A DNA stretch of 64,000 nucleotides, from assembly GCA_000004695.1 (NCBI GenBank), contig CM000152.2:608001-672000 (forward strand), written 5' to 3'. Each line of letters begins with the position of its first letter. Position 1 is the first letter of the stretch. The notes beneath the pieces were generated by a model. The model was not told the origin of the DNA. It searched no databases and worked only from the letters and a program-made list of their open reading frames with translations. The stretch comes from Dictyostelium discoideum. Lineage: Eukaryota. The position numbers and the translations under genes are program-made. Positions 51,739-64,000 of this stretch are shown piece by piece.

Positions 51739-52401
51739 TTATTTTTGGATTTCAAAATAAAAAAAAATCATTGACATAAAAAACACCAAGAAAAAAAAAA
51801 AGTATTAAAAAATATAATATAAAAAAAAAAATTACACGAAAATAAAAAAAAAACAACACCAAAATAAAAAAAAATTTAATTTTTTGGAAAATATCGTCAT
51901 ATAGCAAAAAAAAAAAAATTGTGATGTTTCAAAAAGTAAAAAAACGTCATAAAAAAAACAAAATTCCTAAAAATTCAGACTATCAGACAAAAGTAAGTGA
52001 ATTGATTTCCTACCTTTTGAGGTTTTTATGTTTTAGATTGGGTGAGGAAATATTCGTAGAGAATTTAATTGTAAAAAAAAAAAAAATTTTAAATTAAAAA
52101 TAATAAAAATAAAATTAAAAAAAAAAAAACCTTAATATCCACAGGAAAATATCTTGGACTTTCAAGAAATTTTTTTTTTTACAACCTTTTTTTTCATTTT
52201 TTAAAAAACTCAATATTTTGGATGGTTTACAACCGCTGGAATATATGAAGATAAAAAATATTTTTTGTTTTTTTTTTTTTTTATTTTTATTTTTAGCTTA
52301 TTTTACATTTTTTTATTTTATTTTATTTTATTTTTTGATTTTTATTTTTATTTTGATTGTTTTTTTATTTTTTTATTTTTATTTTTAAATTATTATTATT
52401 T

Positions 52402-52964
52402 TTAAGGAGAATAATCAGTTTGGTCTTCTTGTTGAATTAAATTTGATGAAGAATTTGAAGATGTTAAAGTTTTTCTATTTTTTCTCTTTTTATAAGTAAC
52501 AACCAAGGCTATAACTATTATTAAAATACCAGCTGGAATTCCTATTGACAATGAAAGTATTAATGCTAAATGGTTTGGTCTATTATATTTTCCTCTGTCA
52601 TCATAAAATGTTGGCTTGATTGGGAAAAATGAAAAATCATATTCATATCTCTGATTTTCAATTGATTGTTCAATATATTCATTATTCAATTCTTTATTTA
52701 TAGCATACTTATTATTATTATTATTATTATTAGGTATGATTTGATCTAATTGGAAATTAAAATTAAAAGTAAATGATTTAATTTCATGAGGTTTAATTTG
52801 AATAGTTTCAATTGTTTTGTTGTTTTCACCTTTATTCTCACCATCAATAATATTATTTGTTCCATTATTTGAGAAAATAATTGATGATGGTTTTTCATTT
52901 ATAAATGAATATTCTGATTCACCACATTTGATTGGAAATTTTTTATTTATTCTTGTTGAAAATT
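52402..52964 (-). CDS. GH38 alpha-mannosidase copy 2, exon 4
   Basis: Acceptor aattag|AA. Reads KFSTRINKKFPIKCGESEYSFINEKPSSIIF...TM segment...TYKKRKNRKTLTSSNSSSNLIQQEDQTDYSP*. The cytoplasmic tail differs from copy 1. Confidence 0.75.
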
Positions 52965-53047
52965 CTAATTATTATTTTATTAATTTTTTTTAAAAAAAAA
53001 AAAAAGTTAGTTAAATTCTAAATATATATATATAATATTGTACATAC

Positions 53048-54587
53048 TATCAATTAAATTATTTTTTGTTAATTTTAAAAAAGATAAACCAGTTTCAATA
53101 AAGTTTGATATTTCTAATTCGTTAAATAATGTTGATTTATCGGTATCAGTAGTAGATTGAGTATTTGAATCAACTTCATGAATATTGAATAATCTTAAAC
53201 CGACTGTATTGTTTTTTAATGTTAATAATGATTGTAAATGAATATTTGAAGGTAATTGATTTGATAATGGTGAATATTTTAATAAATAACCAGTTTGATT
53301 ATTGTGTTTTTTGACAAACATAATTGGTTGATTTGTAATATGTAAACTTATTCTTTTTTCATTTTGTAATTGATTATTAACCAAATCCATATTAAAGTAT
53401 AATTTAGCATCACTTCTTCCAATGTCTTTACTTGGCCAATTTACTCCTTTCCAATCATCAGTATCCATAGTTCTATGAATCATAATTTCCATTTCGCCAT
53501 CTGATGGTGATGTTGCGCCAACTGACCTATCTACATAAACTGTATATTGATGATTATTATTTTCTGAGGTTTCTTTTAATTTTATATAACCTAAAACTGG
53601 GTAATAATTTTGATTGACGCTTCTATCATGATTGTAAATTCTTTTTCTAGATTCTAAACCATTATCAGTATAAAATATATCATCATTTTCAAGATCTTTT
53701 ACTTTATAATTGATTGTTGTTTCTCTATTCATATCACCGTTAATTGAATAACCAGTTTCAATGTAATTCTCTGTGATTAATGATTTGCTATTACTATTAT
53801 TGATTTCATTATTATTTTTATAAATTCTTTGAACTACAATCGATGTTACATTACAATAATCATCTACACCATATAACATTGTTAATTGAGATACTAATGG
53901 GCCATCGTGGTAGATGAATTTATCAGGGTTCTCTAAGAATCCGTGTTTTTTACCACCTTTAACATTGAAAATGTATGGACCACTCTTTTTAGTTGAATAT
54001 TGATGGAATGTTTGTTCGATTGTTTTAATTTCATTTGAATTTTTATCAGTTATTTTACTTATTAAACCATTTGATTCGAATTCTACTTTGAATCTATTAT
54101 TATTAAAATTAATTTCATTTCCTTTTTTCAATAATTTTGGTTTTGATAAATAGGTGAAATTTGATTTTGAATCTTCGCTATTAGCAATACTTAAATAATA
54201 AGTATTTAAACCTAATGGTGGTAAATTAATAATTGCAAATACAATATAATTATTTTCAATTGATTGACAATTTGAATCATCTTGAATTGGTATTATTTGA
54301 ATTTGAATTGTTTTATTTGATATAGCTTCAACCAATTGAATTGATTCTAATAATTGATTATCATTTTTATTAACTTTTATTCTAAATGAAACATGTTGGT
54401 TAACTTCCCAACCTAATGTATTGTGGAATACTAATGAATATTGATTATTTGATTCATTTGATAAATCTATTGCATTTTCAAAATTGAATGGTTCACTTTT
54501 ATTTACAGTATTATTATTATTATTACTACTACCACTACCACTACTACTGCTACTACCTGTTGTACTAATACTATTTGTATTTTTAAG

Positions 54588-54642
<55 letters not shown>

Positions 54643-55818
54643 TTATTATTATTATTATTTGTTTTGTTATTACTTTTATTTAATAAATATTCTAAAGAAT
54701 TTGAAATGATATTATAATTTGAAATTCTTGATTTTTGTAATCTTTGGAAATTATCATTTAAAACAAATGATCTTGAAGTACCTGTAACAATATCATGATG
54801 TTGAACCAATGCTATTGTATTTCTATTTTCATTTAATTGATTTGATAACGTTTGTAAATTATTAATATCGATTTGATTATTTGAATTTTCGCCAATTGCT
54901 AAAGTGTATAATATATCTGATGATTTTTGTAAAAGACTTGATTCTCTAATCAATCTTTTTAACAATGGTCTTGTTGTATAATATCCTGTCCAATATTCTA
55001 AATTACCAGTTGAATATGGAAAGAAATCTTTATTATATAATGACAATGCTGATACCTCATCATCACCATCACTAAAAGTTTCAGTGTAAACATTTTGTTT
55101 TCTACTTTTACCAAATTTATTATTTCTCAAGAAACTATCCTCCAAAGCAATGAAATATTCATCTAAAGTTGCATATTTAATTTCTTTGATATTGTAATAT
55201 TCTTTATTATCTTGTAAAGCTTTTACCCACTCTTTTGAAACTGAAAATTCAGTTTTTGCATTTGAATATCTGAAATCATCACCTAATGGAATCATTAGTA
55301 TGTTTGACTCTCTAGTTTTTGATAAATCATTGAGATATTTAGTGAATCCTTTGATACGATCATTTAATGAAAAATCTTTCTTTGGGTCAATATGTTTTGG
55401 ATAATCATAATGGATATTTAATGTGGAAACTAACATTTGTGATTGTTCTCCTAATGATTCTGAACCTTTCCATATGAATTCCATTTCTTTGACTGATTTC
55501 ATATAAGATTTAACATCATTTGAAACACGATTAATAACTAATCCTTTTATACCCATACTTGAAAAAATGGTTGGTGTTGATGATGAATATCCAAATGGAT
55601 CGATTTGCCATGCATACTCTACTGTATAGTTAAGTGTATCTTTTAACCATTGATGGCCTTGTGTCATTTGTGTTATAACATCATCAATTGTTGCTGTTGC
55701 TTCATCATTTTGTACCCATCCACCACTAATAAATGATAATTGTTTATTATTTATTAAATTTCTAACAATTTCTTTTTGAATTTCATTTTGGTCATTCCAC
55801 CACCTACTAAAAAATCCA
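53048..55818 (-). CDS. GH38 alpha-mannosidase copy 2, exon 3
   Basis: The same acceptor and donor as in copy 1. The frame is open from GFFSRWWNDQNEIQKEIVRNLINNKQLSFISGGWVQNDEATATIDDVITQMTQGHQW.... It is 177 nt longer than exon 3 of copy 1 because of an Asn/Ser-rich insertion around 54500-54700. Confidence 0.85.
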
Positions 55819-55940
55819 CTGTGTGTGAAATATAAAATAAAAAAATGAAAAAAAAAAAAAAAAAAATGAAAAAGGTGGTTAGTGGGAAAATGAAAAAAAA
55901 AAAAAAAAAAAAAAAGTAAAAATATTTAATGAAACGTTAC

Positions 55941-56032
55941 ATTTCTACCCAATTAAATTTCTTTTCTTTATCTAAATTTAATTCATTAACAACACCAGAT
56001 AAAATATATTGAACAATATTATAATAATATCC
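55941..56032 (-). CDS. GH38 alpha-mannosidase copy 2, exon 2
   Basis: Acceptor ttttgatag|GGA. Reads GYYYNIVQYILSGVVNELNLDKEKKFNWVE. Donor AT|gtaacg. Confidence 0.7.
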
Positions 56033-56116
56033 CTATCAAAAAAAAAAAAAAAAAATATGTTAAAAAATTTTAAAAAAAAGAAATAATTTATTAAAATTTA
56101 TATATTTAATACAAAC

Positions 56117-56359
56117 ATCATAATCTTGTAACCAACCACCATCGCAATGAGAATGAGGTATTAAAAATACAGATAATTTTTTGTCATCCCCGTTTTCTTT
56201 GTTATTAATTTGATTTATTGTTTTTAAACTTCGTTTTTCGAATTTATTGATTCCAAAAGTTGATTTATAATCGTAATTATTGTATATTATTAAAAAAGTG
56301 AATACCAAAATCCAAATACCAAAAACCCATATAATTTTAACAAATTTACTACTTTCCAT
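56117..56359 (-). CDS. GH38 alpha-mannosidase copy 2, exon 1
   Basis: Starts at ATG 56359 and reads MESSKFVKIIWVFGIWILVFTFLIIYNNYDYKSTFGINKFEKRSLKTINQINNKENGDDKKLSVFLIPHSHCDGGWLQDYD. The donor is GAT|gtttgt. Confidence 0.75.
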
Positions 56360-56444
56360 TTTTTTAAAATATCATTATTAATAAAGTTATTATATTATAA
56401 AAGAAGGTTTTATTTTTTTATTTTTTATTTTTTATTTTTTATTT

Positions 56445-56475
<31 letters not shown>

Positions 56476-56783
56476 ACATATATTAAAAATAAAAACACAA
56501 TTTTTTTGGGAAGGGAAAAGAAAAAATATAAAAAAAAAACAAAAATTAACAATAGTGACTATAAAATTAAAATTAATTAAAAAAAATAATAAAAAAAATT
56601 TACAAAACACATTTTTAAAACACTTTACTAAAAAGGTATTAATTGGGGTGTGGTAAATTTAAAAATTTCTTTAAAATTACTTAATATTTTTAAAAATTTT
56701 TATTTTTTTTATTTTTTTATTTTATTTTAAATGTTCCGATCTTATATAAAAAAAGGAAAAATAAAATAAAAAATAAAAAAAGG

Positions 56784-56819
<36 letters not shown>

Positions 56820-57504
56820 ATTTTTTTTTTTTTTTTTTTTTTTTTAAACAATGACTTGGTTTTATTTATTTTTATTATTATTATTTCAGTATATAAAAAT
56901 ACACAAAATGATATAAATTATATAAAAAATGAATGTAAACATTTTGTTTTTTTAATTTTTTTTTTAATCAAAATTTTATTTTTAATTCATTTTTGTAATT
57001 GTTTTTTTTTTTTCAAAGTGGGGAAATATAAAAAAATAGCTGAATTGGTATATTTTTTTTTATAAAAACCATTTTAAATAAAATCAAATAATTTGGTTGT
57101 TTTTTTTTTTTTTTCCTATATAAGAAATAGTATGGGAAGATTTTCTGAGAAACCACCACCAATAAAGATGAAGATGGTGAAGATGATTATTATTTTGGTG
57201 GTGATAATAGTAAAAATAGTGATGATAATGATAATGATGATGATAATGATATTATTTAATAATCAATTTAAATCTAATAAATAATATTTAAATTTATTTA
57301 TTTTCACCACAAATAAATCAAGACAATTTTTTTTTTTTTTTTATAAAAAATAATAGTGACCTAAAAATAATGAAAAAAAATCTATAAATATATATTTTTA
57401 TTTTATTAAACCTTTTTTTTATTTTATTTTTAATTTTTTGTTTTTTAATTTTTTTTATTTAAAAATGATATTATCTTCTTTTAAAATGCCAAGGTGCATA
57501 GATA

Positions 57505-57655
57505 AATCTTTCCTTCTCTGGCATTTGATTAGTATTGATTCATTTTATTACTTTAGAAATAAAATTTTAATATGATGGTGATCAACCTTTCTTTATGATA
57601 TAGTGCATAGATTAATCTTTCCTTTCTCTATCATTTGATTGGTATTGATTCATAT
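57505..57655. repeat. Two copies of a roughly 50-bp direct repeat spaced about 100 bp apart
   Basis: gtgcatagataaatctttccttctctggcatttgattagtattgattcat (about 57505-57555) matches gtgcatagattaatctttcctttctctatcatttgattggtattgattcat (about 57604-57655) at about 90% identity. Confidence 0.6.
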
Positions 57656-57913
57656 ATTATTATTATTATTATTATCTAGATTAAAATTGAATGTAAACCA
57701 TTTTATTTGGAAAAAAACTAATTTATTAATTGACTTTTAACACAAAAAATAAAAAAATTTTTCACATTTTTTTACGCCTTAAAAAATTAAAAAAAAAAAA
57801 AAAAATTAATAAAAATTCAGATATTTATTTTTGAAAACAAATATTAAAATGAAAGTGTGTATTTTTTTTTTTTTTTTTTTTTTTATTGAACATTTAACCA
57901 TTCTATAAATAAA

Positions 57914-58005
57914 ATGACAAAAAAATCAGAAAAAATAAACAAAGAAAGTAATATTTCAAAAACAATAATTACAAATGCCCAAATTGATCAAAAAATGAGA
58001 AATGA
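57914..58005 (+). CDS. Possible upstream exon 1 of the piggyBac-derived gene
   Basis: ATG 57914 reads MTKKSEKINKESNISKTIITNAQIDQKMRN and ends at the donor GA|gtatgtt. This is phase-compatible with an exon at 58129-58256 (acceptor aaaaaag|G, reading EAEKLFWIFNNKVRPINYSEIVENTTPRKSSINREKIESENN), whose only phase-compatible donor is the weak G|gtcagg, joining ag|AC ATG at 58348. Confidence 0.25.
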
Positions 58006-58347
58006 GTATGTTAATTTGTGATCTTTTTTGTTTTTTAAAATTTATAATTATTAAATTTATTTTTCATTAAATAACATTTTCAATTTTTTATATAATTTGT
58101 TGTATTATTTTTTATTTTTTTAAAAAAGGGAAGCTGAAAAATTATTTTGGATTTTTAATAATAAAGTTAGACCAATTAATTATAGCGAAATTGTTGAAAA
58201 CACTACACCAAGAAAATCATCAATAAATAGAGAAAAGATTGAAAGTGAAAATAATGGTCAGGTTTATAATGAATTATTTTTTTTTAAATTGTTATTAAAT
58301 GAAGATTTATCAAAATTTTTAATTTCATTAATTAATACAAATCTTAG

Positions 58348-59855
58348 ACATGAGAGGGAGAAAAAAATTAGATAAAGGGAAGGATATTTCAAGATTAAAT
58401 GATTTAACCGATATTACATTCTGGAAATTTATAACTGATTATTTAAAAAATATTTATTCAAATAAAAACAATGATAAGATACCACCTGAATTAATTAATT
58501 TAAAAATGATGGATCACAATAGATATTCAGCAGTACATAATGTTTTGGATATGAAAAGTCATAGATTTGAAGAATATTGTGAAATATTTATGAACAGTGC
58601 ATTGAAATATATTAATATTGGTAACGTTCTCAATTGTGATGAAACAATATACGCATATTATGGGAAAGATGCTATTAAAGATCATATATTGATTAATAAT
58701 GATAGCAAACCCCATTCAGTCGGAATTGAAGCATATAGTCTAACAACCAAATTGAATATTAGTAATTGTCCATATGTAATTAGTTATGGTCCAAGAACAC
58801 CAGAAAACTGTCAATCTCCTTTCAATTCATTAAAAACCCTTTTGGATAATTTACATTCAAAATATAATTGGGAGGATCCAAGGAATAACTTAATCGTATG
58901 TTGCGATAGTGCCTTTGCATTAGTAAATAATAAAGAATGTTTAGATGAATTGAAATGTCGTATTTTATCCTCAACAAGGAAGAGTGGCGTGACTGTTCCT
59001 CAAGAAATTAAAATATTCGTCAAACCTTTATTAACCATACATAAAACATTCCTTTTTTATGATGAAAGCACAGGACTATTGTACGAGTATACCAAAAATA
59101 CCGCTGGTCATATCAATTGCATTGCAACAAATCTATATTCAAGATATTCAAACCCATATGTGGAAATTAATAATAATCTAAATATAGAACAATTTGCAAC
59201 TATTGGAAATTTATTTCGTTTTTCAAAAAAAGAATTAGAACTAATTTTTGTTGGTGAGACACTGCATGGGACAACATTGGAAATATTAAATGGCAAATAT
59301 AAAACTAACTTTGTAAAACCACCATGTGGTCCTTTTTGGAACGAACAAATGTTGAAGAAATTATCAGCTGAACACATAGCTCAAATATATAATGATAAAT
59401 ACAAAAAAGAAAACAACAATCTTAACAAAAACGACAAAATTAAAAAAATATTAGAACCATTGGATAGCACTCAAGATGGTGGGATATATGATAAAAACAA
59501 AAATTATTCCAAGAAGGAACTACAAGATTTAAAAATAAAAGTTATTGGTACTCATCAGAATCGTTCCCAAATGATTCATGATCAATATATTTTCTGGTAC
59601 AACCTTGTAGACATCACAGACAAACGTTACTATGCTACAATTAGAGGTAGCTCTTCCCACTCGTATACTAAATTATTTATATTAGGTGGTTTGTTTGATT
59701 TAATACTAAATTCATATTCTCTGCACCGTGAATATCATGAAATGGAATTAGAATGTAAAAATCCAGAAAATCAACCTCCGGAAATAATTCAAACAATAAA
59801 TAAATTTGTTGAATCCCTCATTTTTCAATTTCATGAATTAAAAGAATTACAATAA
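58348..59855 (+). CDS. piggyBac-transposase-derived protein (DDE_Tnp_1_7-like domain), main exon
   Basis: ATG at 58350. NCDETIYAYYGKDAIKDHILINNDSKPHSVGIE aligns with piggyBac IDEQLLGFRGRCPFRMYIPNKPSKYGIK (first catalytic Asp conserved). YVISYGPRT aligns with YMINGMPYLGRGT. NLIVCCDSAFAL aligns with NITCDNWFTSIPL (third Asp conserved). SSTRKSGVTVPQEIK aligns with GTVRSNKREIPEVLK. Where the second catalytic Asp (MMCDSG) is expected, the sequence is AYSLTT. Confidence 0.6.
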
Positions 59856-60484
59856 ATCAATTTACAATCAATAAAACTGTTTTAATTATTTTTTTTATTT
59901 TTTTTTTATTTTTTTTATTTTTTTTTTTGAAATTTTTTTTTTTTTTTAATATTAAAAAATGTGAAAATTTTTTTTATTTTTTGTGTTAAAAGTCAGTAAT
60001 AAAAAAAAAAATTATTAAAGTTAGATTTAAATTTTAATTTATTTTTTATTATTTATTTTTTATTATTTGTTTTTTTTTTATTAACTTTACCATTTTTTAT
60101 TTTATTTTAAACAAACAATTGACTTTTTATCTAATTCTTTTTAATTGTTAGAGTTAGATTTACTTTTTTTTTTTCTATTTGTTATTTATTTTTTTTTTTT
60201 ACATTTGCTTGAATGATAATTTTTTTTTTTACTCTATTTATACTTGATCATTTTTTAAATTTTAAATTATTTGAAAATAAATAAAAGAAATTTTTTTTTT
60301 TTTAAACTTTAAAAAAAAGAATGGTATTACATTCATTTTTATTTTTTTTCCATTTTTTAAATTATTTTTTTTTTCAATTTCTCACAATTTTAAAAAAAAA
60401 ATAAAAAATAAAAATAAAAAAATAAAAAAATTTATTTAACAACAAATAAAAAGAATTAATTCTAACAAAGAAATTATTTATGCG

Positions 60485-60520
<36 letters not shown>

Positions 60521-60575
60521 ATTTGTAAACTTATTATTTTCATTAATTTTATTTTATTTTATTTTCACTTTAGTT

Positions 60576-62363
60576 TTATTTTTTACTTTTACCAAAAAAT
60601 CTTGAGGAAGATTTTTTTTCATCTTTTTTCTTGGATTTATTATCTTCATCGATTAAGTTATTATCCAATTCGATGATAGTTTTAGTAGGGATTGAATTAT
60701 TACCTTGAAGATGATTATAGGATAAAGAGATAGTTGAGGAGGATCTAATTGGAGATGATTGGAAAGATAAAGAAGCAGTATGAGAACGACGTGGTTTCAA
60801 AGGGAATAACTCTTTCAAAGAGTCAATTCTATCTTGAATTTGTTGATGTAAAACCTGATGAAGTATTTTCTCTTCTGGATCGAAAATTTCGAGATCTGAT
60901 TGATTAAAGTATAACTGTTTCCAAACCTTGAATCTCTTTATGGAGCAATCAGGAAAGATGACATCACGCTCCTTTATGCCGGTTGGCTGATAGAGAGGGT
61001 TGATGTACTCTTTTAGATTGCCGTCCATCTCTGCCCAAAGACTGATGGTTTTGCCATAGATATGGTTTTGCACTCTCTCTTTCTCTGTGTTGAATAAAAA
61101 GTTACCATATTTGCCACTGTAGGAATGATAAAGTATAGTTTTCAAAAAGTTTGCATTAAATTCGAATTTGCTTGGAAATTGATGAATGATTTGGTAGCAT
61201 GCCTCAATGAATTGGTAGAGTATGGGTGATTGCTCACTCTCGTCTTTACCATGAACTTGACCACAACGTTGAGCGAATTTATGACCGAAACTAAGCCACT
61301 CCTTTTCAATTAGGATTTGAAAGCCTCTAATGGTTCTAAAGTATGGGTCTAGCAAAAGTTCAGCCAATGAGACCAATTGTGATGTTCTATCCCATCCATC
61401 ACTACAATGTACCAATACATTGTGATGTTGTAAATGAATTAGTTTTGCCAATCTAGTTGCACCTTGAATCACCAATTTAATATGACCAAACCAACCACTA
61501 GATTCCAATTGATTGAACCAGCCATCTTCCTTATCAATGGATGATACTGCTGCATCTTTAATCTTCCAAAGGGAATGTCTCATTGAATGAATATTTGCAA
61601 TATTTAAAAACTCTAATGTACAACCTGGATAATTATTTAATATCTCCCATCCTGCACCTTTTGCACGATTACCAACTGCATTTGCATATGGTCTACAATC
61701 TAATATATACAATGTTCTATCTGAACTATTATTTTCTTTATTACTACCACTACCGCTACCTCCGCTACCTCCACTACTACCACTACCAGCAGTACTTGTC
61801 ATACGAATTGAATTTAATAAATTTTCATCCTCAGTTGAACGATTACCACCAATGCCAACCATTGGCTGACTACAACGAGTGATTGAGCATTTATTAGACC
61901 AATGTCTATAGGAGAGTACTGGTATTCTACCTTTACTACGAAATTGTGCAACACTTTTCAATTGTTCATCAGTGATTGATTCTGGAACACCCATTAATCC
62001 TGGATAACTATCACAAATGAAATAGTTATAATTTGCATCTGATACTCTCCAATCTGGTGATGGTACACCCATACGTGCATATTCATCACGTGCACTATAC
62101 AATGTCCATCCTAATCCAACCAACTCCAATCTAGTATACTCTTGTCTAAGATTATAACAAAACAATGTTGTTGGACTTGTACTTTGATATTGTTCAATAC
62201 ATCCTCTAACATCTTTTAAACTTGAATTACTCTTATCAAATGAAATACTATGAATTCTATAATCCTTACAAATGAAATTTAATCTATATGAAAATTCACC
62301 ACCACCTTGTTTCTTTTTACCATTTTTAGTTAATTTTGAAATAGTATGTAATGAAAAATGTTT
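60576..62363 (-). CDS. Myotubularin-family phosphoinositide 3-phosphatase, exon 3 (phosphatase domain)
   Basis: Acceptor aaaaaag|AAA. Reads KHFSLHTISKLTKNGKKKQGGGEFSYRLNFICKDYRIHSISFDK...LFCYNLRQEYTRLE...RIPVLSYRHW...VLVHCSDGWDRTSQLVSLAELLLDPYFRTIRGFQILIEKEWLSFGHKF. The CX5R active site is HCSDGWDRT. Confidence 0.85.
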   Translation of the reverse strand, partial: KHFSLHTISKLTKNGKKKQGGGEFSYRLNFICKDYRIHSISFDKSNSSLKDVRGCIEQYQSTSPTTLFCYNLRQEYTRLELVGLGWTLYSARDEYARMGVPSPDWRVSDANYNYFICDSYPGLMGVPESITDEQLKSVAQFRSKGRIPVLSYRHWSNKCSITRCSQPMVGIGGNRSTEDENLLNSIRMTSTAGSGSSGGSGGSGSGSNKENNSSDRTLYILDCRPYANAVGNRAKGAGWEILNNYPGCTLEFLNIANIHSMRHSLWKIKDAAVSSIDKEDGWFNQLESSGWFGHIKLVIQGATRLAKLIHLQHHNVLVHCSDGWDRTSQLVSLAELLLDPYFRTIRGFQILIEKEWLSFGHKFAQRCGQVHGKDESEQSPILYQFIEACYQIIHQFPSKFEFNANFLKTILYHSYSGKYGNFLFNTEKERVQNHIYGKTISLWAEMDGNLKEYINPLYQPTGIKERDVIFPDCSIKRFKVWKQLYFNQSDLEIFDPEEKILHQVLHQQIQDRIDSLKELFPLKPRRSHTASLSFQSSPIRSSSTISLSYNHLQGNNSIPTKTIIELDNNLIDEDNKSKKKDEKKSSSRFFGKSKK

Positions 62364-62451
62364 CTTTTTTAAAAAAAAAAAATTAAAAAAAAAAAAATTT
62401 AAATTAATATTATATATATATAAATATATATATTATAAAGTATATACTTAC

Positions 62452-62960
62452 CACATATGGTTCATTCTTTGTTGTATAACCATAAAAAATAATTTGAAAG
62501 TTTGTTAAATATAATGAACCTTTTATAAATTCATCTTCAATTTCACTAAATTGATGATTATTCATATTGTTATTATTTATTGCTGTATTTTTTCTATTGT
62601 TATTATTATTTGATGGTTGTGTTGGAGTTGAAGTTGTCGTTGTTGTTGTTGTCGTTGTTGTTGATGATGAACCATTTTGTTGAATTCTTGAATTATCAAC
62701 TAAATGATAATTACAAGATTCAACTTTTAATAATAATTTCTCACCATCTGATAATTGAACATGATCAGGTAATTGAATGGTTCTAAATGTGTTTACTTGA
62801 TTTCTTATATTTCTAATCATTTCACCATAAAGTAATACTGTATTCACAGAGGTTTCAAAAATTAATTTCTTTTTAACTATTAATATCTTTGCTTTAATAT
62901 TATCTAAACATTTATGAATAAGTTGGTGCATTGATTCAATACTTTTAACTGATCTTTCAT
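62452..62960 (-). CDS. Myotubularin-family phosphatase, exon 2 (GRAM/PH-like domain)
   Basis: The acceptor aataaaaag|AT restores AAT. Reads ERSVKSIESMHQLIHKCLDNIKAKILIVKKKLIFETSVNTVLLYGEMIRNIRNQVNTFRTIQLPDHVQLSDGEKLLLKVESCNYHL...FIKGSLYLTNFQIIFYGYTTKNEPYV. The donor is GTG|gtaagt. Confidence 0.75.
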
Positions 62961-63089
62961 CTTTTTATTATTATTAAAAAAAAAAATATATATATTACAA
63001 TTAGTATTTTTTAAAATAATGACATTTTTGATTTGTGTGTGTGTGTGCGTGTGATTGTAATATGGTGTGGGTGGTTTTTTTTTACATAC

Positions 63090-63801
63090 TTTTTTTACGA
63101 TTTGTTTTTGAATGAATAATATTAATTAATTCAGATTCTAAATTTGAATTAACACTTTCTTTACCATTTGAAAGATTTGATAAATTTATTGTGGCACCAC
63201 CACCACTAACTGATAAAGATGAAGAGGATGCTGATTGACGTAATGATTTTTGATTTTGATCATTAGAGTTTGATAATGATGGTGATGATTGTTGTTGTTG
63301 TGTTGGTAAACTTGGTAAATTTAAAGCAGCACCAAGAGAACCAGTTGATGTATTGGCTGTGATTGCACTACCACCATTAGCATTATTGTTATTTGATAAA
63401 TCTAAACTACTATTATTTGCACTATTATTACCACTACCACTGCCATTTGAACTATTATCAGTTGAATTATTGATATCCTCTAAAATCTTTTCAATTTCAA
63501 TTAAAGTTTCAGAGATTTTCATAATATCTTTAAATGATTGTGATACTTGTTTCTCCCTTTTCATTTCTGATATTTTAAAAATGATTGTATCAATAGTTTT
63601 ACTACTGATATCTTTTAATTTCTCCATTTTCTCATCGGGTCCCAATCCAGACAAATTTGAACTACTTCTTGGTTTATTACTTGGTGATAATAATTGTGAT
63701 AAAGAACCTTGAGTTTGAAGTGATTGTGTTGGTGGTAACCTAGATGATGTTGATGTTGATGTTGAGGTTGATGTTGTTGTTGCTGTTGTATTATTACTCA
63801 T
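63090..63801 (-). CDS. Myotubularin-family phosphatase, exon 1 (Ser/Thr/Asn-rich low-complexity N-terminus)
   Basis: Starts at ATG 63801 and reads MSNNTTATTTSTSTSTSTSSRLPPTQSLQ...ESELINIIHSKTNRKK. The donor is A|gtatgtaaaaaaaaacc (phase 1), joining exon 2 in frame. Confidence 0.65.
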
Positions 63802-63961
63802 TTTTTTATTTTGGATTTTTTAATTTTGGATTTTTTTATTTTTTTTAATTTACATAAAAGTACAAATGTTGATATATATATATTTTATAAAATTTTATTT
63901 TTATTTTTACTTTTAGAATGGATAAAAATATAAGTTCTAAAAGAATAAAAAAATAAAAGAT

Positions 63962-64000
<39 letters not shown>

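Follow-up and report, generated by a model that had tools for sequence, protein, structure and literature searches.

Positions 57730 to 59996 (+ strand) of a 64,000-nucleotide (nt) stretch of Dictyostelium discoideum DNA (contig CM000152.2, positions 608,001 to 672,000; this whole stretch is called the window in the following) very probably represent one copy of a DNA transposon that is 2.26 kb long, moves by cut and paste, belongs to the piggyBac superfamily and was recently mobile within the D. discoideum species complex. The window is strongly AT-rich DNA of the Dictyostelium type, the copy comprises 2,267 bp from tip to tip of its terminal inverted repeats (TIRs), and the gene it carries is, by its sequence, one that already has a name: sslA1, “suppressor of smlA”. 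A preliminary description of the locus had rightly recognized the piggyBac ancestry of this gene from the raw sequence. Its scenario of a domesticated, non-autonomous PGBD-like gene, in sharp contrast, is contradicted by a complete catalytic triad, by TIRs with a target-site duplication (TSD) and by near-identical copies of the element.

The open reading frame (ORF) that had been noted there is real. It runs from ATG to stop at positions 58350 to 59855 (+), encodes 501 amino acids (aa) and comprises the part of exon 2 that lies 3' of a frameshift, starting at the first in-frame ATG. The ORF is 100% identical to residues 75-575 of protein P0001, whose cluster contains the AX4 “suppressor of smlA” (UniProt SSLA1_DICDI; AX4 XP_638582/XP_642279) and the GenBank entry for SslA1 (AAM34288); a paralog cluster contains SslA2. 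A search of 5.8 billion proteins returned five protein clusters only, all of them from D. discoideum or D. cf. discoideum. In the literature sslA1 is placed among the developmentally essential genes, with its function tabulated as “Unknown” and its conservation as D. discoideum only (PMC4931340), and Gao et al. 2007, as cited in the same paper, describe a “novel protein” that takes part in the regulation of group size by counting factor. Our results reinterpret the product of this D. discoideum-specific “multicellularity gene”, the function of which is listed as unknown, as a transposase, so that the phenotype and the restriction to one lineage have to be read anew.

The homology to piggyBac becomes visible through intermediates or through structure. 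The Pfam family PF13843, a search for which had been suggested in the preliminary description, was not matched by the 501-aa ORF even at E<=10, nor by the intact 605-aa protein P0008 at E<=1 (hmmscan), and the ORF found no match in PHROGs or among the sequences of the Protein Data Bank (PDB). In a set of 1.84 billion representative proteins, however, a profile made exclusively from SslA copies recovered 46 relatives (E<=1e-3). The nearest of these belong to other dictyostelids (Synstelium polycarpum, 1.8e-27; Tieghemostelium lacteum P0023, 3.9e-27, and P0025, 1.2e-17) and are about 21% identical to SslA; a T. lacteum relative carries a UniRef label for a piggyBac-derived domain. PF13843 is matched by 17 of 40 relatives (best 7.9e-12) with no competing family, and its gathering cutoff of 22.4 bits is exceeded by P0023 (27.1 bits) as well as P0025 (38.7 bits). 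The family profile in turn matches Trichoplusia ni piggyBac (6x67) at E=6.8e-8 in hmmsearch, and hhalign aligns it with piggyBac over 223 columns at 94.6% probability (E=7.2e-8). On these grounds, profile-based and transitive homology places SslA in the piggyBac superfamily at the sequence level.

The sequence motifs quoted in the preliminary description (NCDETIY, NNDSKPHSVGIE, IVCCDSAF, SSTRKSGV and AYSLTT) are all present, and the block-wise likeness to piggyBac was reproduced by profile-profile alignment, which pairs NCDET with TIDEQ, SKPHSVGIE with NKPSKYGIK, AYSLTT with LMMC..DSG and CCDSAF with TCDNWF. A conserved (I)P.KPH.YG motif corresponds to PNKPSKYG of piggyBac; its KPH is encoded at 58707 to 58715 (+), and the three residues (K224/P225/H226) are near-invariant in the 40-sequence alignment. 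Structure prediction with AlphaFold2 on the basis of this alignment reached a predicted local distance difference test (pLDDT) score of 88.9 and a predicted template modeling (pTM) score of 0.79, compared with a pLDDT of 32 when five close copies only were supplied. The predicted model has the overall fold of a piggyBac transposase, i.e. an alpha-helical dimerization/DNA-binding domain followed by an RNase-H-like catalytic domain that is interrupted by a beta-stranded insertion domain.

The active site of T. ni piggyBac consists of D268, D346 and D447 (PMC7351741; PMC5381638), and an Asp stands at each of the corresponding positions in SslA (D201/D290/D525 in P0008 numbering). Asp 1 (GAT, positions 58638 to 58640) was located by hmmsearch against 6x67 and by hhalign, Asp 2 (GAT, 58905 to 58907) by hhalign and Asp 3 (GAC, 59610 to 59612) by the family-profile alignment, all on the + strand. 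The aligned pairs are NCDET/TIDEQ for D268, CCDSAF/TCDNWF for D346 (in hhalign NNLIVCCDSAF against CRNITCDNWF) and NLVDITD/GGVDTLD for D447, where the family profile “fYsshYglvDridrefY” aligns with “YYNQTKGGVDTLDQM” of piggyBac. Asp is found in 40/40 family sequences at the first and also at the second position, and in 30/30 of those covering the region at the third. A further Asp (59619 to 59621, +) corresponds to piggyBac D450, the role of which is described in PMC5381638, and is D or N in the family. The DDD triad thus appears complete, with no catalytic residue missing, and from this we infer the catalytic chemistry of the enzyme. The claim that the second catalytic Asp has been lost goes back to a correct alignment, namely that of AYSLTT with piggyBac MMCDSG, but the Asp of the latter motif is not a catalytic one. 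Likewise, the residue in CCDSAF/ITCDNWF that had been taken for D3 is actually D2, and the true D3 follows about 235 residues further on.

Terminal inverted repeats, which had been reported as missing, are present at both ends of the element. They are about 45 nt long and are located at 57730 to 57774 (+; TTGACTTTTAACACAAAAAATAAAAAAATTTTTCACATTTTTT...) and 59952 to 59996 (-; ...GTGTTAAAAGTCAG), as identified by local alignment of the left end with the reverse complement of 59952-59997, and other copies carry them in conserved form at their ends. Their 27-nt exact core occurs only these two times in the 64-kb window and in 0/100 shuffles. The tips read (C/T)TGACTTTTAACAC...GTGTTAAAAGTCAG, i.e. 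5'-(C/T)TGAC...GTCAG-3', and the unit enclosed by them contains a single two-exon gene, its sole ORF being the piggyBac-like one. Directly outside the termini a TAA is found on either side, at 57727 to 57729 and at 59997 to 59999 (both +), which we regard as the TSD from flank comparison and from an empty site with one copy of the trinucleotide (see below). Ten further copies were compared (L001-L005 and L008-L012), each of them in a different gene neighborhood. The DNA homology of all ten to the window ends at or within the TIR tips; in window coordinates the blastn limits are 57728-60013 for L004, 57731-59996 for L005 and 57722-60003 for L008-L011, with unrelated flanks.

A TAA on both flanks is seen in four independently flanked copies (the window together with its duplicate L006, L008, L010 and L011), the background frequency of TAA being 0.047. 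L009 shows TAA/CAA, and single ends show TAA in L003 and TTA in L005 and L012. A TTAA duplication was considered and rejected, as the left flank is often TTAA while the right flank is TTAA in none of the eight independently flanked copies, and a duplication of 3 bp agrees with the empty site. The possibility that TAA forms part of the TIR was also rejected, since it is a direct and not an inverted repeat and is replaced by TTA in L005 and L012. The imperfect duplication TAA/CAA at the L009/L014 junction belongs to a very young copy (0 mismatches to L010). A later random mutation is unlikely here; donor-flank bases may instead have been carried on the transposon ends, by analogy with piggyBac chemistry.

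Recent mobility is directly evident from the copies. Over ~2257 bp, 0-3 mismatches separate L009, L010 and L011, the flanks of which are unrelated. They have a premature stop in common, which means that they were copied after inactivation, and they must therefore have been mobilized in trans. L005 is 99.3% identical to these three and has an intact large exon; which copy supplies the active transposase is a matter of conjecture. An orthologous empty site was found for the L009 locus, which adjoins a gene for an E2 ubiquitin-conjugating enzyme that several genomes share in identical form. The intergenic site of three D. discoideum assemblies is empty and reads ...AAACATTAAAAAA...ATTATTTCTTT (aligned core ...ACATTAAAA...), whereas in D. 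cf. discoideum ACTFIY it is filled and reads ...AAACATTG [CTGAC-2259 bp-GTCAG] TTAAAAAAATTATTTCTTT, i.e. ...ACATTG[2259-bp element]TTAAAA.... The genes flanking the filled and the empty locus are 98.5% and 94.5% identical. The insertion comprises exactly the TIR-to-TIR unit: ACA-TTA-AAAA in the empty state corresponds to ACA-TTG-[element]-TTA-AAAA in the filled state, so that the one TTA (TAA in the orientation of the element) now flanks the insertion twice, in one case with an altered base. Transposition is thereby demonstrated, and a duplication of TTAA is excluded. If the mechanism resembles that of piggyBac, a dimer of the transposase would synapse both TIRs, the DDD site would cleave at the TIR tips, and the element would integrate at TAA with a 3-nt stagger, the repair of which would duplicate the TAA.

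Of the rival scenarios, domestication survives best, although we consider it improbable. Here, SslA1 would be a piggyBac-derived host gene that no longer transposes and has been kept for a role in counting-factor and group-size regulation, like the vertebrate PGBD genes. The published phenotype and the regulated protein levels (Gao et al. 2007, as cited in PMC4931340) are in line with such a role, as are the low number of copies in D. discoideum laboratory strains and the most diverged copy, L001, which retains an intact 594-aa ORF despite degenerate-looking termini. The protein is also under purifying selection, with ratios of nonsynonymous to synonymous substitution rates (dN/dS) between copies of 0.14-0.21 at dS 0.13-0.71. 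This does not discriminate between a transposon and a domesticated gene, because purifying selection is likewise expected, and seen, along the lineages of active transposases. At the window locus, on the other hand, TIRs and TSDs are intact and the catalytic triad is fully conserved; near-identical copies reside at unrelated sites, and insertion polymorphism has been demonstrated. All three observations that the preliminary description itself had named as speaking against its view were thus made: an Asp aligns at the second catalytic position, TIRs are flanked by a duplication (of TAA, not TTAA), and near-identical copies exist. Synteny, another check proposed there, also argues against domestication. 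A search for myotubularin returned D. purpureum and none of the other D. discoideum strains, and the window locus therefore has no within-species empty site. In D. purpureum, with which the locus was compared, the genes for myotubularin and alpha-mannosidase that neighbor the element in the window are separated by a spacer of 480 bp that contains nothing SslA-like, and PMC4931340 gives the conservation of the gene as D. discoideum only. Many copies are moreover decaying, with frameshifting indels in L002, L003, L004 and the window copy; transposon families typically contain such decaying copies side by side with intact ones. Like PGBD1-5 and the ciliate PiggyMac/Tpb2, SslA derives from piggyBac and has been reported to have a cellular or developmental phenotype. 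Those genes, however, have lost their TIRs and occupy fixed orthologous loci, in contrast to an element with TIRs and TSDs that is strain-polymorphic and present in near-identical copies.

A 3-bp TWA duplication is a hallmark of PIF/Harbinger transposons, and the same kind of duplication is seen here. The TIR-bounded unit could hence be a non-autonomous element that is moved by a PIF/Harbinger transposase and carries the piggyBac-like ORF as a passenger, which would explain the 3-bp TAA. Genes of the PIF/Harbinger type (DDE_Tnp_4) indeed adjoin two copies in D. cf. discoideum, at 9749-11045 in L003 and at 8001-~8750 in L005 (P0014, match E=8e-19). In L005, however, the SslA element interrupts the Harbinger gene and truncates the domain at profile position 125/158, and the arrangement is therefore a nested insertion and not a partnership. 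Furthermore, the Harbinger genes of L003 and L005 are 32% identical and are not flanked by SslA-type TIRs, and no annotated DDE_Tnp_4 gene is found near the other copies examined. PIF/Harbinger elements encode a DDE_Tnp_4 transposase and a second, Myb-like protein, neither of which lies inside the SslA element, whereas its own ORF has an intact DDD site and is under purifying selection. Taken together, this makes the passenger scenario very improbable. At L005 the Harbinger gene and the SslA element have been fused into an 833-aa gene model (P0014). The Harbinger gene of L003 was also considered as a possible empty counterpart of the L005 insertion site and proved unusable at 32% identity. Harbinger, too, is missing from the classical list of Dictyostelium transposons.

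It is hardly conceivable that segmental duplication or gene conversion dispersed the copies as a gene family, with the inverted repeat as a shared promoter/terminator palindrome. The 12-kb, 99.84% identical duplicate of the window locus does show that large duplications occur here. The homology of all other copies, however, breaks off no more than a few bases from the TIR tips, an identical trinucleotide stands at both ends, and what is missing from the empty site is precisely the TIR-to-TIR unit and one trinucleotide.

The piggyBac transposon scenario fits the general organization of T. ni IFP2 and the piggyBac-like elements (PBLE; PF13843; structures 6X67/6X68, piggyBat 9C0F) in several respects: one transposase gene for ~600 aa between TIRs in an element of ~2.3-2.5 kb, the positions of the DDD triad, the P.KP..YG and Y..VD..D...Y...N(A/S) motifs, and a target that consists of A and T only and contains TAA. 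The differences are also substantial. The SslA element duplicates 3 bp (TAA, or TWA) and piggyBac 4 bp (TTAA). The TIRs of ~45 nt have CTGAC/GTCAG tips, compared with 13 nt and CCC/GGG tips in piggyBac. A cysteine-rich domain at the C-terminal end (CRD; a cross-brace zinc finger) is missing from SslA, with one Cys in the last 90 residues versus seven in the CRD of piggyBac; a helical structure is predicted for the C-terminus, and the relatives likewise have no Cys-rich tail. Between the strands of the insertion domain (end ~369) and D3 (D525) lie ~150 residues, as opposed to ~14 in piggyBac (433 to D447). Finally, the SslA gene contains an intron, and its sequence has diverged too far for direct detection by PF13843.

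Within Dictyostelium, the accepted families of DNA transposons are Tdd, DDT and Thug, the known transposases of which resemble no known transposases (PMC5633606). As the preliminary description had correctly stated, piggyBac is not among the classic families (PMC5633606, PMC5381638), and in a survey of piggyBac elements the Amoebozoa are represented by Entamoeba invadens only (PMC5381638). The SslA element resembles Tdd-4/5, DDT-A/B/S and thug-S/T in being a TIR-bounded class II element of low copy number that tends to cluster with other elements. Tdd-4 and Tdd-5 (Ginger2) have integrase-like transposases, a length of 3.8 kb, TIRs of 260-297 bp and 5-bp TSDs (PMC2836005), in contrast to the predicted piggyBac fold, the length of 2.27 kb, the ~45-nt TIRs and the 3-bp TSD of the SslA element. 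An identity with thug-S, which also has an intron and several copies, was considered and rejected, as its marker is missing: the small RNA of the thug-S intron (miRNA D3; PMC4894637 Table 2) is absent at <=3 mismatches from all copies of the element, including the intron in the window. A thug-S hairpin (miRNA D3 with 1 mismatch) was detected at ~7263-7335 of L008, outside the element and 2.5 kb away from it, an instance of the clustering of transposons.

Several points weigh against our interpretation. SslA itself reaches no Pfam threshold, so that its assignment leans on intermediates and on a predicted structure, and the alignment behind this prediction includes those same intermediates. The SslA-only profile found no direct match to the single piggyBac sequence in hhalign. 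Catalytic activity is deduced from sequence and from the analogy with piggyBac, and two defining features of piggyBac, the TTAA duplication and the C-terminal CRD, are lacking. The single empty site has a mismatched trinucleotide (TTG/TTA), and strictly speaking a 2-bp duplication with an extra terminal base would fit it as well. The element may also turn out to be identical with DDT-A/B/S or thug-T, having been set apart only from Tdd-4/5 and thug-S. Moreover, the published group-size phenotype (Gao et al. 2007, as cited in PMC4931340) indicates an influence on host development and fits some degree of host function.

If our interpretation holds, the SslA elements would constitute a fourth family of Dictyostelium DNA transposons and the first with a recognizable transposase superfamily, with very recent movement directly evidenced; this count takes DDT and thug-T to be distinct from the SslA family. 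An enzyme of the predicted piggyBac fold that duplicates TAA and has no CRD would also represent a natural experiment on the target specificity and the stagger of piggyBac, the determinants of which matter for the engineering of piggyBac tools. A link between the transposase and the published group-size phenotype is something we infer. A more far-reaching scenario, which we regard as doubtful, can also be outlined: the SslA elements would form a distinct branch of piggyBac that has lost the CRD, uses a 3-nt stagger at TAA/TWA and is still active in wild Dictyostelium, while the level of the transposase would be tied to counting-factor/glucose signaling and alter aggregate size. This would be a live transposon that is wired into, or exploits, the switch from unicellular to multicellular life.

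The transposase gene comprises two exons and, in the window copy, a +1 frameshift. Exon 1 (MTKKSEKINK...MRNE) spans 57914 to 58005 (+) and ends at a GTATGT donor at 58006, as derived from three-frame translation, splice sites and the N-termini of P0001, P0002 and P0008. The single genuine intron (58006 to 58128, +; GT...AG, very AT-rich) is defined by its splice sites and by the reconstructed coding sequence. Exon 2, the main coding exon of the transposase (58129 to 59855, +), is uninterrupted in P0008/L006, P0007, P0002 and L005. In the window it is disrupted by a 1-nt insertion in a homopolymer of seven A (A7; 58361 to 58367, +), which in the intact copies is A6 (window GAGAAAAAAATTAG, L006 GAGAAAAAATTAG). 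When one A is deleted and 57914-58005 is joined to 58129-59855, the translation equals P0008 exactly (605 aa). Likewise, P0002 (594 aa), P0008 and the AX4 SslA1 (P0007) continue without interruption across the second intron of the P0001 model. The gene of P0008 is located in the same assembly as that of P0001, on a different contig. The preliminary description had proposed two small upstream exons; exon 1 is indeed a separate exon, but the supposed second one is, judged from the reconstructed coding sequence, exon 2 read ahead of the frameshift and cut by the inserted A. The A7 allele is not an assembly error, because the GenBank SslA1 entry (AAM34288.2), in which it appears as MRGRKK, was sequenced independently.

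Two public gene models bridge the frameshift, each with a different non-consensus intron and both with the acceptor at 58347; the donor is GTCAGG at 58257 in the NCBI model ACTFIT_006355 and GTGAAA at 58245 in GenBank SslA1 AAM34288.2. With regard to annotation, these introns are probably invented ones. The segment that is lost through the frameshift aligns with the conserved start of the piggyBac DNA-binding domain (hhalign). Because the frameshift removes this start from any product, the window copy itself is probably disabled and non-functional. The intact ORF has been kept by the 99.8%-identical duplicate locus L006 and by the AX4 reference genes. In this duplication, window positions 51906-63996 (12 kb) are 99.84% identical to L006, which lies in the same assembly (GCA_054883475.1) but on a different contig. 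The segmental duplication is recent, and the transposon lies within it; one locus carries the intact A6 and the other the frameshifted A7 allele.

Some further observations concern individual copies and the surroundings of the element. In L004 (5796-5837) a 40-nt perfect palindrome is present, in which an extra, inverted TIR tip of ~20 nt adjoins the left end (...TTTTTTGTGTTAAAAGTCAA|TTGACTTTTAACACAAAAAA...); aberrant transposition or hairpin processing could have left it behind. L001 (5800-8100, strain ACTFIW) has 81% DNA identity and an annotated 594-aa ORF, the family TIR is no longer clear at its termini, and it may be an older, immobilized copy. Scans of 56300-60600 against Rfam and for tRNAs returned no matches. 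In the same region, ~75 bp 5' of the left end of the transposon, a tandem duplication of ~110 bp (57465-57685) is found in the window and its duplicate L006 only, not with the other copies of the element and with no Rfam or tRNA match. Its core of ~52 nt is well conserved (GTGCATAGAT.AATCTTTCC.TTCTCT..CATTTGATT.GTATTGATTCAT) and lies at 57494-57546 and 57604-57656.

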